The notes beneath the pieces were generated by a model. It was not told the DNA's origin. It saw nothing but the letters and a program-made list of their open reading frames with translations, and searched no databases. This document shows positions 42,201 to 64,000 of a DNA stretch of 64,000 bases, piece after piece; the stretch's first letter is position 1, and each line of letters opens with the position of its first letter. A program made the translations under genes and the position numbers. Source of the stretch: Mytilus californianus (lineage: Eukaryota); NCBI RefSeq assembly GCF_021869535.1, contig NW_026262690.1, positions 42,594,001-42,658,000 on the forward strand, given 5' to 3'.

Positions 42201-43657
42201 ATGGGAAAAACTATAAGAGTTAGTTTTGTCGTAAATCTTATAATAATATTATGACATTAGTAATACCAAAAGTTTTGAATTCCAGATAATACATTCAATG
42301 TCTAAATAAGCCAATCAGATAAATGTAGCTAATTTCTAATTTTGTTTAGGCCAATTAAATGCTTTTAACGTGTATCAGAGGTATGACTTTTAAATGACCT
42401 GATGACGATGATGTGTCAATATGGACAACGACCTACTATTAACATTTGTAAAACAAAAGGATATAAGTTGAAGAAATTAAATGCATTTTTACTGACACCT
42501 AGGCAACAGTCTTCATTCTAAGGAATAGAGTACCAAGCAAAAGTTATCTATGAGTTATACATAGGTAAATAGATTGTCCTGTAATTTTTGTTATCTAACT
42601 GATAAAAGTGTAAGATAACTGCCAGATTTCTATCCAGAAAGCCTTCTTTGGTAATTATTTACTCAAAAAACTATTACAAAGCTATGACAAATAAATACAA
42701 TAAAAATGTGCTAATGTCATTAATCAACAACACAACAACGAATGCGAATTGTATTTATCATACACAACATGATGGGTGTCCCTAGTAGAACAGCAAAAGA
42801 CTTTGACCCCGGTTTCTGGTGGGAAGTATGTGTTTATTTGTGATTTTGTCGTTTATGCATCTATCATATCTTTTTTCATCTTCAAACAACCCCGTTCAGT
42901 TTTCTGTGTTGTGTTTTGTGAATTTTTATTTATCTTTTCGTTTTTGATTTTGCCTTTATATCAGTCCTGTTTGAAGAGCCTATATGATATGAAAGGTGGG
43001 AAAATTACTAACTTCAATTCCAGGACGATGTGGACCATTCGACGATAAACAATAAATACTTTAACTCCATTTAAGCAACAGAATTTGTGTATAATATGGA
43101 AAAACAGTCAACTTTGAAATCAAGAGCGACAAGTTCTACATGAATCCCTTATGAAGAGATCTTCCAAGTCATGAATGTAATAAATTTCGCCTGATTGCAA
43201 AATGAGTGCAAATAAATACTAAAAGACATAGATCAATGGAAGATACCATTTCCTTCAATAATGTATGAGAGTACCATCATTTTCTGGAATTCTGAAATTA
43301 TGCAAGGTTTGAAATGAAACAACTCCTTTTGGCGATTTTTAATTGAACTTCAAATACGTTCTTAGATATATTTTCTCATTACCTTTACGCTTAACAAAAT
43401 ATTAATACATGCAGGTGCAGTGTTTCCAGTGTGTTATGTGAAAACTTAATTTGTTGATAAGTAACATTGAAAATGGACCTATGCAACAGACTTCTTACTT
43501 GAGGGATGACCTATCTTGTGAACCGTAACTTATTGAAGCAGTACGTTTAATGTGAAAGAGTTGTTATCTTGTATAACATTGCACTTCAAATACAACTCAG
43601 CAAGTAGATTTCATAACAAAGCACGATTCCGTGTAGCTATGCCATGACATTGTTATA

Positions 43658-43988
43658 AGTAGTAGTAGAATAGGGATAAGAAAACAGTAGAGCAGGTAGA
43701 GCAGGTAGAGCAGCTTATGTAAATATTGTGCTAGTGATGGTGGAATGTTTGTGTCCACGTGTCATACTTTTGACCAAGGTAGAGCAACATTGGTTGGTAA
43801 CCAGGTTATGTTTGTCGTCCATTTTGTTTCCACGTTGCAAGGTAGAGCAACATTGGTCGGTAACCAGGGGTATGTTTGTCGTCCATTTTTGTTTCCACGT
43901 TGCTGACTTTTTCAAGGTAGAGCAACATTGGTTGGTAACCAGGGTACGTTTGAGATGACGTCCATGTTGTCCACGTTGTAGAATTTTG
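43658..43988 (+). repeat. Left terminal inverted repeat
   Basis: Reverse complement of 63134-63464 with no mismatch seen. ORF-track entries 43715..43915 and 43728..43958 are identical to 63207..63407 and 63164..63394, and coordinates sum to 107122. Degenerate similarity continues ~30 bp inward. Confidence 0.97.
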
Positions 43989-45823
43989 TGTTGTTTTTTG
44001 CTTGTCTAAATTGTTATTTGCTTGGAGTTAGTCAATATGTGAGAGAGATGGTTGTTGGTAAGGGGTGGCATTCATTTTCTTTCCACAACACACAAACTAC
44101 AGAAACTTGAGAAGAGATAAAACAAAGATTGAAGAAAATAAATTATTTTTATTATCAAAAACTTATATACATTATGTATACATCACATTTTGTGTAGATC
44201 ACCATTATTGCAAAAACTGATTGAGTATTTTTAGCATAAAAAATAAATATTACAATACTATGTATAGTATATAAAAACTTGTATTAAAACCGATATTTGA
44301 GCATACAACCCTGAGTTTGTTTCTAATATATATAAAATTTTATAAAGCTTCTAAAACAAATGTTTTTTTTTTTAACAAGAATGGATTTCTAAAAAGAGAC
44401 ATGTAAAAGATTACATATAGTAATATGATTAACGAGATGATTCTAGTTTTTAAAAATGACTACAATATAAAAAGTAACTTGATGGAATGTGATAGAAGAT
44501 AAATTATGTTATAAAATAAAAATATAACCCACATGGTTTCCACGTTTAAAATGAAAACACGCATGAAGCAAAAATTAAAAGATGGAATGTTGCACTAAAG
44601 TAACAAAATATAGATAAAATATATACAGGTATCATGGTTTGATTAACAACCGTAAATGCTTATTTTTTCAATGTAAGAATACACAGCACCAAAACTTTAG
44701 TAAAAATGTAGTGTACTACTCTCTTTATAAAACTTGTCTTTATAGGGGAATCTGGCGGAATGCATAGCACCATAAAACAGTTAGCACCAAAACTATAGTA
44801 TAAGCACTACTTTTTTTTTTATAAAACTTGTCTTTATAGAGTATATTTTCCTCTCTTAAACTATCATTGTAAATGAATATATTAAATATATATAACAGCA
44901 TGTTATCAGGAGTACAACTATCATGATTTGAAATATGAACTTTAATGATTATCACAATTATTTAGCACCAACTTTAAAACAATTAACATTTAATAAATTA
45001 TCACAACTATATTGCTTAATAACAAGAAAAACAAAGACTATATACATGTTTTATATTACAGTATAAACATTTCATATACTACTAAGGTCTGTCTAATGTT
45101 CCCCATCAACCTCTATAGCATTTTTGATATTTTTACATTATTTTTAAGACCAAATAAACGTTATCTTTTAATCTGATAGATCATATCAGATAATTCCTCT
45201 GATGTAAAGCTTCATAAATATTTTGATTTTCTTCCTTTAGAAGTTATCATACTGTATAATTACTAAATATTTTTAATTACAATCAAGCCTCAAGCTAAAT
45301 AACTGTTGATAGATAAACATGTATAACAATCTTTAAATGTAGAGTATAGGAAATTGTCTTAATTGCAATCAAGTTTCAAAACTAATTAACTGTTAATGGA
45401 GAACATCAGACAGATAAACATATATTACTTCTAATTTGAGTTAAACTTCTTCTTAACATAACAAAACAGACTTGTGTAAACATATATACAAAACTTCTAG
45501 ATATGTATAATATAAACAACACCCTTTAAAGTAACATCATTTCAAAAATCTGACTTATTCCCTATTTTCATCATAAAAATAAATTTAAAGAGAGAAATTA
45601 AGCGAAAAATGTATCAATTTATCCATAATTTATAATCATGTCAAACACAGGATGTTGAGTCTTTCTTATGTATGGAAAATTATCACTCTCCTTTGTTAAA
45701 ACCTTCAATAATAAAAAAAAAAAGCCCCCCTCAATAAACTTCTTAAGATAATATAGCATAGAAATGCTAATATCTCCTTTGTTATCACAATGGATGCTTA
45801 GTCATATATAAATTAATCCTAAA

Positions 45824-46329
45824 ATGGCATCTCAGTTAAGTCTAAATGAATTAAATTTATCAACCCAACTTTATTTAATGAATCTTATCATAACCAAGAG
45901 AGAAGAATAAGTCCTTTAATATTTAGGAAAAATGTTATACTTTCATTCTATTTGGAAAACTTTATGATGGATCATCGTGCTTCAATCAGTAACTTTCTTT
46001 CTCAATTGACTAATTTTGTATCTCAACATATACCAGTAGTGGGGAGTCATTTTTTCCCATGTTATAAGTGTTCAATACAACCTGAGTTGTTTGAAGAAAT
46101 AAAGAATTGGTATTGTCAGCAACCCATCAACACATTCAGTAGCATGCAATTTAATGTTTCTGCACTATATCATGCTTTGTTGCATGAAAGCAGGGAAACT
46201 AGGATAGGATGTCTCATACGAATGAGCGAGACATTTTTGGGAGAACTGATGCAGCAGTGCAATACAGCTAATAGTGTGCAAAGCCGAGACATGCTGCAGA
46301 TAGGATTAGATATCTTAAAGGACAGGTAA
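45824..46329 (+). CDS. Polinton accessory ORF of unknown function, probably ~168 aa after one frameshift near 45849
   Basis: The frame of the 125-aa ORF (45952-46329) stays open upstream to 45850. ATG at 45824 (MASQLSLNE) is one base out of frame at an aa run. Contains a CYKC motif. It ends at GAC AG|GTAAGA, which is either a stop or a splice donor. Confidence 0.45.
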
Positions 46330-46428
46330 GAAATACTTTCAACATTTTTGTATATGAAGTTACTTAATGAAGCAATATGATTCATAAAGCTAGTCTTACA
46401 ATGGTATTATTCATAGTTTTATAATTAA

Positions 46429-46695
46429 GGTGGTATCCAACACCTTACCTAAAATAAATTTGGTTTGTTGAGTTTTCATAAAATTTTAACAAAGTATTTA
46501 TTTTGAACCTTTGATAAAAATTTCAAAATATTTGAACCAACCATTTCTTTATAAAAATTACACTGGGTATATAACAGTTTAACAAACACTAATTTCAACC
46601 ATTGAGAAGCTTATTACAATGCCCTTAAATACATATCATAATTAAAACATTTAGCTGATTTTACAGAGTTATCCCCCTGTAGTGTTAGGTACATC
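46429..46695. mobile_element. Host MITE inside the Polinton, flanked by TTAA
   Basis: ttaa|ggtggtatccaacac ... gtgttaggtacatc|ttaa, with imperfect terminal inverted repeats. It lies between two convergent genes. Confidence 0.65.
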
Positions 46696-62805: not shown

Positions 62806-62832
62806 GATTAATCAGTAAAGACTAACATTTAC

Positions 62833-63030
62833 TTATATACCACCACCACCTGAAGTCTCTACAATTTGTATAATTAAATCGTACTTCCAGTCTTCAACCT
62901 TTAATTCAACAATGTCATAAAGCTGCTTTAATTCTATGAATCTACTCAAACCATACTTAAATAATAAGATATATATCTGCCCTTTTTTTGTTGATAACAA
63001 AACCTGGTAATGTAACCTCAGAATTTTCAT
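62833..63030 (-). CDS. Small ORF next to the right TIR, unknown function (65 aa from first ATG)
   Basis: MKILRLHYQV...VETSGGGGI*. Same strand and tight spacing as the cluster, but no recognisable motif. Confidence 0.35.
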   Translation of the reverse strand: MKILRLHYQVLLSTKKGQIYILLFKYGLSRFIELKQLYDIVELKVEDWKYDLIIQIVETSGGGGI

Positions 63031-63133
63031 TTTAAAATTATTAACAACATATATCGTCAAAAATAAATATAGTAACGTAAAAAAAAAATGGATGCCGCTC
63101 ACTTAAATAACAATTTTGACAAGCAAGGCAACC

Positions 63134-63464
63134 CAAAATTCTACAACGTGGACAACATGGACGTCATCTCAAACGTACCCTGGTTACCAACCAATGTTGC
63201 TCTACCTTGAAAAAGTCAGCAACGTGGAAACAAAAATGGACGACAAACATACCCCTGGTTACCGACCAATGTTGCTCTACCTTGCAACGTGGAAACAAAA
63301 TGGACGACAAACATAACCTGGTTACCAACCAATGTTGCTCTACCTTGGTCAAAAGTATGACACGTGGACACAAACATTCCACCATCACTAGCACAATATT
63401 TACATAAGCTGCTCTACCTGCTCTACCTGCTCTACTGTTTTCTTATCCCTATTCTACTACTACT
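63134..63464 (-). repeat. Right terminal inverted repeat
   Basis: Reverse complement of 43658-43988. Ends ...ATTCTACTACTACT followed by the TSD GTTATA. Confidence 0.97.
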
Positions 63465-64000
63465 GTTATATGTTAACGAACTGAGGTAGTAGTACTTCGT
63501 ATATTTCAATTGTTTGTCAATATCCTATCCTTGTGGTCAATTTTGATTATGTTAAATTAGGTAAAAAATCTAACGCCTGAGACACGTTTTTTGAGCCAGA
63601 AATAAAATACACTTTCAAAATGCTAAATATTTTGTTAATTGCTGTTGAAGTTCGAATTCCTCTTGTGGTTATCTGTTATGTGTAGCACATTCAATTGAAT
63701 TGATCACACATTGTCGCTGTTTTTCCACAAAACATCATCTAATAAAGTTTATTTTGTAAATGTGTTAGGAATGTTGAAGAGTGTCAATTATTTTTGTGTC
63801 ATTCTAAGTAACTGTAGCTTTAATGAAGGAGATGTTAGATCAATGAGACAACAATAAATAATTGAATGAACAATGAATTTGGTACAGATGTAATTATGTT
63901 TATATGAATTATGGAAATGAAGTTCATTTATCTGTTACCATTTAGAATAGAAGTTATAATTTCTGTAATAAACTGTTTCTGAGAGATGGTTAACCAGTTA

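Follow-up and report, generated by a model that had tools for sequence, protein, structure and literature searches.

Element ends and target-site duplication

The window, i.e. the whole 64,000-nucleotide stretch of Mytilus californianus DNA analysed here, is free of Ns and carries a Polinton of 19,807 bp flanked by a target-site duplication (TSD):

43652..43657, no strand: left TSD GTTATA (read from the sequence)
43658..43988, plus strand: left terminal inverted repeat (TIR), 331 bp, with an (AGT)n end and internal 9-bp and ~63-bp subrepeats
63134..63464, minus strand: right TIR, exact reverse complement of the left one
63465..63470, no strand: right TSD GTTATA (read from the sequence)

A first-pass annotation had proposed identical 331-bp TIRs, a perfect 6-bp TSD and AGT-repeat ends, and all three could be confirmed. 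The TIRs are exact reverse complements over 331/331 bp, with the first mismatch at position 332 (an inverted-repeat search returned 336 nt, counting this mismatch); the 0/331 differences correspond to a 95% upper bound of 0.9%. The element begins and ends with AGTAGTAGTAG and CTACTACTACT, respectively, and its (AGT)n termini could be read at both TIRs. Long TIRs with 5'-AG(T)...(A)CT-3' ends and a 6-bp TSD, here GTTATA on both sides, are Polinton/Maverick features. An Rfam search found no match within the element, and a sigma-70 scan of the TIR was set aside as irrelevant to a eukaryotic host.

Integrase and virion genes

The integrase and virion genes lie on the minus strand, together with several small open reading frames (ORFs):

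60260..61366, minus: retroviral-type integrase with C-terminal chromodomain (Pfam rve, catalytic residues)
59838..60257, minus: penton, minimal single-jelly-roll (minor capsid protein; fold)
59356..59835, minus: basic 159-aa ORF located between penton and MCP, the PW position
58033..59355, minus: double-jelly-roll major capsid protein (MCP; model pLDDT 94, Foldseek)
57524..58036, minus: adenain-like cysteine protease (alignment, catalytic residues)
56754..57524, minus: A32/FtsK-type packaging ATPase (Pfam Pox_A32, motifs)
56446..56757, minus: small basic ORF of 103 aa; relatives occur in Polinton loci L082 and L083
56166..56474, minus: small ORF, 102 aa, no family
61614..61931, minus: small basic ORF, 105 aa, no family
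61986..62390, minus: ORF, 134 aa, no family

No stop codon interrupts the integrase of 368 aa, the 139-aa penton, the 440-aa MCP, the 170-aa protease or the 256-aa ATPase, and the catalytic residues noted in the first-pass annotation were located. The integrase is of the retroviral DDE type typical of Polintons/Mavericks (D79, D140 and E175 with 35-residue spacing; Pfam rve, E 8.4e-11). Likewise, the set of A32/FtsK packaging ATPase (Walker A 56-63, Walker B 128-133; Pfam Pox_A32, E 3.6e-5) and adenain protease (H53, D69, Q100 and C107, aligned to adenain) is that of polintoviruses/adintoviruses, as are, by fold, the two capsid proteins. The predicted MCP model matched the double-jelly-roll MCPs of EhV-201, PBCV-1 and Sputnik (Foldseek E 1.6e-14, TMq about 0.6), and the single-jelly-roll penton matched a PBCV-1 chain (Z 12.0, rmsd 3.1, 129 aligned), a Sputnik chain (Z 10.1, rmsd 3.2, 128 aligned) and the mavirus penton (Z 9.8, rmsd 3.0, 122 aligned). 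The earlier claim of a full virion gene set was supported by fold. The polymerase, which that annotation had not listed, is split into four exons.

A search of viral_contigs returned one distant locus of the protein-primed type B DNA polymerase (pPolB) and no MCP or penton relative, a blank that carries little weight, and an exact look-up of eight window proteins in the protein collection found 0/8. The small basic ORFs at 56446-56757 and 61614-61931 look alike by eye; BLASTP gave no alignment between them.

The polymerase gene is predicted to contain three introns

Rather than a single ORF, pPolB comprises four exons and three introns:

52871..56088, minus: exon 1 (C2H2 fingers, exonuclease motifs, motif A)
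52495..52870, minus: intron 1, 376 nt, GTATGT..CAG, phase 2, inside motif B
52648-52867: host interspersed repeat within intron 1
52199..52494, minus: exon 2
52047..52198, minus: intron 2, 152 nt, GTATGA..TAG, phase 1, inside catalytic motif C
51885..52046, minus: exon 3
51521..51884, minus: intron 3, 364 nt, GTGAGT..CAG, phase 1, with a 31-bp minisatellite (8.5 copies)
51180..51520, minus: exon 4

The exons total 1,339 codons with 0 stops in each. Protein matches at E<=1e-50 numbered 7,937, named PolB or DNA-directed DNA polymerase, and exon 1 has the exonuclease, A and B motifs, identifying the Polinton/Maverick type of enzyme; Pfam DNA_pol_B_2 (PF03175) matched neither exon 1 nor the named relatives P0162 and P0155. 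The introns (376, 152 and 364 nt) are GT-AG throughout, none is divisible by three, and two of them interrupt catalytic motifs (intron 1 motif B, intron 2 motif C). The uninterrupted homologues P0021 and P0031 aligned as four consecutive HSPs at the four exons with no query gap. GT-AG ends, frame-restoring phases (2/1/1) and a conserved position are those of spliceosomal (U2-type) introns. Contigs of the family at bulk depth (records 1, 25 and 26) cover both the donor and the acceptor of intron 1, as well as intron 2. In the one run guessed to be RNA (X15), spliced pPolB RNA was not seen, and one contig crosses the intron-1 acceptor unspliced. A search of sequencing runs listed no RNA run that contains the element, an outcome that weighs neither way. 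The joints listed (15 of 98) all fall at a host repeat or a TIR, and both host repeats inside the element sit in introns, one in pPolB intron 1 and the other in a putative accessory intron.

Exact ends at the intron-1 site were found in 10 of the 120 pPolB matches listed (53-80% identical), and at the intron-3 site in five of these 120. Besides, ORF calls diverge from gene-model relatives at the intron-1 and intron-3 points, including in a Magallana gigas pair. Since proteins of relatives that are 53-80% identical break off at the intron-1 site, and that of an oyster element at the intron-3 site, the pPolB introns appear to be old and to travel with the element, with sharing read from the end points of protein ORF calls, not from the relatives' DNA. 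In a tree of 41 sequences (from 52, 11 of which were excluded because the 300 residues preceding motif B could not be cut out), all 16/16 sequences ending at an intron site formed one clade (support 0.963). P0013 ends at the intron-1 site yet falls outside the main intron-1 subclade, and the order of intron gains is therefore not clean.

Accessory region and membrane-protein gene

An accessory region of ~7 kb holds intron-bearing genes, one of them for a type I membrane protein of about 230 aa:

48358..48690, minus: membrane-protein exon 1, hydrophobic N-terminus and Cys-rich ectodomain
47961..48119, minus: exon 2, Ser/Thr-rich stalk
47450..47677, minus: exon 3 (47677-47611, phase-1 donor at 47610), with read-through to 47450
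47306..47430, minus: candidate terminal exon B, 40 codons in phase 1, with a hydrophobic start and a Cys/basic tail
47076..47197, minus: candidate terminal exon C, open for 39 codons in phase 1, with a hydrophobic start, basic residues and a Tyr tail
46765..47042, minus: candidate terminal exon D, open for 91 codons in phase 1 only, with a hydrophobic start and a Pro-rich tail
45850..46326, plus: 159-codon open frame ending at a GTAAGA donor; probable accessory exon, no family
49321..50930, plus: probable multi-exon accessory gene (exon 1 49321-49557, donor 49558; later exons predicted from sequence)
49827-50066: host repeat in the first putative intron of the 49321..50930 gene

All 111/111 residues of membrane-protein exon 1 are identical to XP_052097338.1 (M. 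californianus). The gene is multi-exon, with up to four candidate alternative transmembrane/tail exons: reading through exon 3 to 47450 yields a fourth hydrophobic stretch and tail, exon B is used in database models P0200 and P0201, exon D in the M. edulis gene models P0201-P0203, and exon C in none of the four database models. Of the five acceptors 3' of the exon-3 donor, the strongest three each open a long, hydrophobic-starting phase-1 frame. The protein matched no Pfam family, and in the ESM Atlas feature matches reached <=0.83 and structural TM <=0.32 by query, with no fold assigned.

Related copies and a probable empty site

In a comparison that left aside intron 3 and the left half of the element and made no use of uncovered X15 parts, contigs from two organism-A runs differed from the element by 0.32-0.36% and organism B contigs by 1.05% (22/6,940, 34/9,386 and 74/7,057 base differences for the listed long contigs). 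Read depth, whose comparison with the flanks had been suggested earlier, was several times flank depth over the element in public contigs, which points to multiple copies, although depth does not equal copy number. Among listed rows (28 of 40 used, out of 376), 13/24 coding differences were synonymous versus 27% expected (p 0.004), including all those listed in MCP (4/4) and ATPase (3/3).

The first-pass annotation had also judged the insertion young and probably polymorphic and had proposed seeking an empty site in other individuals. In run X2, record 32 (1,530 nt) aligned only over 63464-64000, although the TIR was included in the comparison; it tracks the right flank as far as 63464 and then departs from the element. 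This is where an empty allele would be expected to stop, because the left flank has one extra T in common. The contig fits the empty site, and the rest of it probably matches the left flank. Given near-identical copies at several times flank depth and this contig, the insertion looks young and polymorphic, and both earlier judgements are supported. A usable figure for Mytilus species divergence was not found, and horizontal transfer is therefore not claimed.

Discussion

We interpret the element as a young copy of a still-spreading Mytilus Polinton family of the adintovirus type, with a full virion gene set and old spliceosomal introns in pPolB (probability roughly 0.8). The protein-primed polymerase would copy its linear, TIR-ended genome, the ATPase would package this genome into a double-jelly-roll capsid that the protease matures, and the integrase would insert it with a 6-bp target duplication. 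The polymerase would be made only once the host spliceosome has removed three introns, which would tie expression to host nuclear transcription. These introns may date back to early gains in a bivalve element lineage, beginning with the intron-3 site (common with oyster) and followed by intron 1, and would replicate as part of the DNA genome along with the host repeats that landed inside. Particle formation is likely.

Bivalve Polintons have been reported before, and an adintovirus record exists for Mytilus. The Mediterranean mussel adintovirus (PolB DAC81352.1; Starrett et al. 2021, PMC8502044) shares host genus and pPolB clade with our element, yet 59% identity over exon 1 places it in a different family. 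P0009, its 90% cluster-mate, ends at the intron-1 site, as here. DAC81352.1 itself continues through the intron-1 and intron-2 sites and lacks a match to exon 4, so the deposited protein seems, on sequence grounds, to be partly joined; 'splic' does not occur in the text of PMC8502044, nor 'intron' or 'splic' in the part of its supplement covered. In the literature listings and passages covered on Polinton polymerases and on Mytilus/bivalve Polintons (subscription papers, bioRxiv supplements, Repbase and GenBank feature tables aside), we found no description of introns in pPolB. Intact vertebrate Mavericks (Barreat and Katzourakis 2021, PMC8097293) have 6-bp TSDs and (AGT)2//(ACT)2 ends as here, TIRs of 46-1,447 bp and a total of 12.7-24.6 kb, both ranges including the mussel element, and share its order of integrase, minor capsid, PW, MCP and protease. 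All mussel core genes share one strand, as they do in Xenopus tropicalis, instead of forming two facing modules. The ORFs of the intact vertebrate elements are intronless, in contrast to mussel pPolB, and with its three predicted introns our element is not 'intact' in that study's working sense of intronless core ORFs. The PolB-plus-integrase definition of PMC8502044 does not include intronless ORFs, which are a screening criterion only.

The three interruptions might instead be host insertions that followed integration, leaving pPolB dead and the copy non-autonomous. A host repeat in intron 1, the minisatellite in intron 3 and the missing spliced RNA in the single RNA-guessed run would fit, and the covered part of PMC12166617 describes introner-bearing eupolintoviral elements of dinoflagellates, Polinton-like proviruses with spliceosomal introns as here, whose introns are young transposon insertions that mostly postdate integration. 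In the mussel, however, the sites are common to distant families, with end points shared by relatives at 53-80% identity; all three introns have GT-AG ends and phases restoring a contiguous alignment, and bulk-depth contigs carry introns 1 and 2, which makes dead host-interrupted pPolB hardly credible. An old, fixed insertion is also very unlikely, as is TIR identity produced by assembly collapse. Although a filled junction was not found among the rows listed for any run, and the assembly method behind the sequence is not given, the perfect TSD has unique flanks, TIR identity ends sharply at 331, coding DNA is only 0.3% from that of other animals, and X2 holds a probable empty allele. Besides, TIR variants occur within the family (joint 63217-63283), so identical ends are not forced by family uniformity.

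More serious, if still rather unlikely, is that the family spreads only intracellularly as a germline self-synthesizing transposon, its capsid genes serving an intracellular step or being recent relics, with no infectious particle. The intron load and host repeats suggest long nuclear residence, MCP and penton relatives were missing from viral_contigs, and the part of PMC8097293 covered reports no Maverick particle observed as of its writing. Yet every virion gene is open with confident folds, the listed MCP and ATPase differences are synonymous (7/7), and the annotations of two Mytilus species include near-identical proteins. As to the membrane-protein gene, passive host cargo, with the extra hydrophobic exons as chance or exon-duplication relics and one form used, is a contender we rate somewhat below even odds. 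Nematode Mavericks (Widen et al., 10.1101/2022.07.12.499685, in the part covered) carry intron-bearing host cargo adjoining the left TIR, comparable to the accessory genes of the mussel element, the mussel protein lacks family and fold, and database models differ on the last exon. On the other hand, the membrane-protein matches (4/4) come from Mytilus, P0203 and the pPolB copy P0156 lie on contigs of equal size (2,867,271), and long hydrophobic-starting phase-1 frames follow the three strongest of five acceptors. According to the same part of that preprint, the nematode elements also encode a single-pass membrane protein with signal peptide, as does the mussel element, but theirs is an 866-aa gB-like fusogen, and their core genes are intronless, unlike mussel pPolB.

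The reading of a young, still-spreading family invites a bolder, doubtful extension, namely that this bivalve lineage is a splicing-dependent virus whose replicase needs three splicings, whose surface glycoprotein takes different forms via transmembrane/tail switching, and whose particles pass between mussel species. In the related adenoviruses, the E2B polymerase mRNA is spliced and the E3 region yields single-pass membrane proteins via alternative splicing; to our knowledge, adenoviruses have no integrase. The likeness to E2B/E3 is an analogy only; searches with the mussel membrane protein gave no sequence or fold link. If the extension were true, three required splicing events could act as a latency or tissue gate, and particle passage between mussels would explain the near-identical M. 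californianus and M. edulis proteins.

Because the family is young and low-copy, has a probable empty allele and lives in an inexpensive animal with abundant sequence data, observation could show whether animal Polintons produce particles and continue to move. Screens requiring intronless ORFs would misclass such active elements as degraded; bivalve surveys that ignore introns exist (10.1101/2025.04.19.649669). Intron gain in a DNA-replicating, virus-like genome is a rare case, and the common intron sites offer a marker for element history across mussels and oysters.

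Element identity and virion genes

The element spans 43658-63464 (19,807 bp), its 331-bp ends are exact reverse complements that terminate in AGT repeats/ACT repeats, and GTTATA stands on both sides as the target duplication; direct sequence comparison confirmed the identical terminal inverted repeats (TIRs) and the duplication proposed in the first-pass annotation. A study on intact vertebrate Mavericks (PMC8097293) gives a 6-bp duplication, an end motif and size ranges, and the mussel element agrees in all three. An approximately 65-bp TIR subrepeat (63217-63283) is absent from some copies in the public sequencing runs X1 and X2, and copies from organism B, one of the run sources, carry small indels in the TIR.

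Core genes of the element
Minus strand, open reading frame: integrase (Pfam rve, E 8.4e-11) that carries a chromodomain
Minus strand, open reading frame: adenain-like protease
Minus strand, open reading frame: A32-type ATPase
Minus strand, open reading frame: 139-aa protein, penton by its fold
Minus strand, open reading frame: 440-aa protein, major capsid protein (MCP) by its fold

Because Pfam offered no family name for either capsid protein (440 and 139 aa), these were identified by structure prediction. The 440-aa model (104-row alignment, pLDDT 94) matches the double-jelly-roll capsids of EhV-201, PBCV-1, iridovirus and Sputnik with E about 1e-14. For the 139-aa model (23 rows, pLDDT 76), structural matches were a PBCV-1 capsid chain (Z 12.0, rmsd 3.1, 129 aligned), followed by a Sputnik chain (Z 10.1) and the mavirus penton (Z 9.8). 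A motif check found all catalytic motifs of the core enzymes, and the earlier claim that integrase, MCP, penton, protease and ATPase are open with catalytic residues in place held against reading frames, Pfam, motifs and folds. In the ATPase frame (56754-57524, minus strand), the first ATG yields an odd Cys-rich leader of 33 residues, and the second Met may be the true start.

Every close relative that carries a name comes from Mytilus. The polymerase PolB of a Mytilus adintovirus has already been deposited (DAC81352.1, described in PMC8502044; 59% identical to exon 1 of the element's protein-primed polymerase, pPolB), and such elements are abundant in bivalve genomes according to 10.1101/2025.04.19.649669; a complete mussel Polinton is therefore of an already-known type. 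The element is a real Polinton of a known group, with a full virion gene set. Intronless Polinton polymerase contigs also occur within bacterial MAGs (L082, L083, L084 and L085; Sedimenticola, Oligoflexia, Flavobacteriales), most likely as mis-binned animal host DNA.

Introns of the polymerase gene

What appears, from sequence, to set the element apart is a replicase with old, family-wide spliceosomal introns, together with a multi-exon membrane gene. The gene list of the first-pass annotation lacked pPolB, which consists of four exons.

Introns of pPolB
52870-52495, minus strand: intron 1, 376 nt, GT-AG, phase 2, in motif B
52198-52047, minus strand: intron 2, 152 nt, GT-AG, phase 1, in motif C
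51884-51521, minus strand: intron 3, 364 nt, GT-AG, phase 1

The long pPolB reading frame terminates within motif B, and the uninterrupted homologues P0021 and P0031 align to four successive stretches, gap-free in the query. The exons total 1,339 codons without a stop, and no intron length is divisible by three. With introns 1 and 2 lying in motifs B and C, an unspliced message would yield no polymerase. Both host interspersed repeats found in the element lie within introns. Spliced pPolB RNA was not seen in the sole run guessed to be RNA (X15), where 15 of 98 joints were visible, all host repeat or TIR; one of its contigs spans the intron-1 acceptor unspliced.

Intron sharing was read from where relatives' proteins end, with DNA-level evidence for locus L052 alone. 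Among the 120 pPolB matches listed out of 7,937, ten (53-80% identical) end exactly at the intron-1 site and five at the intron-3 site, and ORF calls diverge from gene-model relatives at intron sites, including a pair with a cluster named from Magallana gigas. FastTree, run on 41 stretches (midpoint root, 11 sequences excluded), placed all 16 sequences with intron-site endings, the window included, in one clade (support 0.963), whose full-length members are gene models of mussel, oyster and pearl oyster and whose sister is the uninterrupted P0021. P0013 ends at the intron-1 site, yet is placed outside the main intron-1 subclade, so intron loss or repeated gain is possible. Of the 85 fetched loci, mostly distant, 67 matched, and in 42 the match continues across the three intron sites without a break. 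L052 carries a 247-nt GT-AG intron (6470-6716) in motif B; it sits 8 nt further downstream than intron 1 of the window and reflects either a separate gain or intron sliding; P0030 and P0083, in a separate clade, end near this position. Two ORF calls that belong to the bivalve clade or lie close to it (P0015, P0018) stop at other points past motif C, perhaps marking additional intron sites.

Bulk-depth contigs from public DNA runs span the intron-1 donor with 0 differences, and also the intron-1 acceptor and intron 2; therefore, most element copies carry these introns. Taken with the clade of shared endings, the pPolB introns appear to be old and to belong to the element family. DAC81352.1 reads through sites 1 and 2, so intron joins may stand silently in GenBank. 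Core genes are described as intronless in the intact vertebrate Mavericks (PMC8097293) and in a nematode Maverick (10.1101/2022.07.12.499685), whereas the mussel element has three introns in pPolB. Introner insertions are known from dinoflagellate elements (PMC12166617), and the available portions of 10.1101/2023.08.22.554363, PMC12220804 and 10.64898/2026.07.28.741278 hold only self-splicing introns or unrelated uses of the term.

Accessory membrane gene

One minus-strand accessory gene codes for a protein with a hydrophobic N-terminus, followed by a Cys-rich ectodomain, then a Ser/Thr stalk and half of a membrane helix, at which point the frame reaches a phase-1 donor (47610). Of the five acceptors further downstream, the three strongest (47431, 47198, 47043) open phase-1 frames of 40, 39 and 91 codons, each hydrophobic at its start, and read-through past the donor gives a fourth such frame. 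Terminal exon choice varies among database models, and we put the chance that these exons are truly used alternatively at about even. One model lies on a contig equal in length to that of a pPolB copy, which suggests that the gene travels with the element. The gene's first exon (48358-48690) is identical to an M. californianus model across 111 residues. Pfam, ESM Atlas and structure searches returned no family and no fold; from the architecture, we take the product to be a cell-surface or envelope protein whose tails could be exchanged and which most likely would act on host-cell interactions. Adenovirus E3 may be an analogue. Inside a plus-strand accessory gene, a 164-bp segment is directly duplicated at 50200-50630, the two copies flanking a 70-bp inverted one; a splice donor is thereby doubled.

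Elsewhere in the window

Outside the element, a tandem segmental duplication (10253-15831/15971-22304; about 5.6-6.6 kb, pieces 91-98% identical) holds broken reading frames that had no Pfam match and that we take to resemble retroelement reverse transcriptase. Rfam SECIS_1 at 18321-18384 (minus strand) scores 36.7 against a gathering score of 35 bits, possibly by chance. A Cys-rich peptide with a hydrophobic leader is encoded in a host exon (36339-36701, plus strand); it had no Pfam match and may be the precursor of a secreted hormone.

Insertion age, copies and selection

At least half of the words of 54000-63990 occur in 14 of 24 runs listed (6 studies), and four of these public runs were compared over 51840-64000. 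Among the long contigs listed, 22/6,940 and 34/9,386 bases in organism A and 74/7,057 in organism B are unlike the window. Depth within the element exceeded that in the flank bin in X1 (about 100-200 versus 17), X2 (47-82 versus 6) and X11 (85-310 versus 31), which we read only as several copies, depth giving no copy number. A 1,530-nt contig (X2 record 32) aligns solely to 63464-64000 and extends by at least 421 more letters towards the element, a stretch that does not match the TIR. The alignment of an empty allele would be expected to end exactly at 63464, as that of this contig does, since a T precedes the left duplication too and the base beyond it is different; the contig is good, if indirect, evidence of an empty site. 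Together with 0/331 TIR differences (divergence bound 0.9%) and the low divergence, this agrees with the earlier view of the insertion: the element is young and probably polymorphic.

M. edulis gene models (P0155, P0157) are 94-100% identical to polymerase pieces (51180-54063), and such near-identical proteins in two Mytilus species make horizontal spread of the element possible. Finally, both organism-A runs share 28 differences, a selected subset (28 of the 40 rows shown, of 376), of which 24 are coding and none creates a stop; 13 of the 24 are synonymous against 27% expected (p 0.004), including 4/4 in MCP and 3/3 in the ATPase. This suggests that the capsid genes were under selection while the family copied itself.
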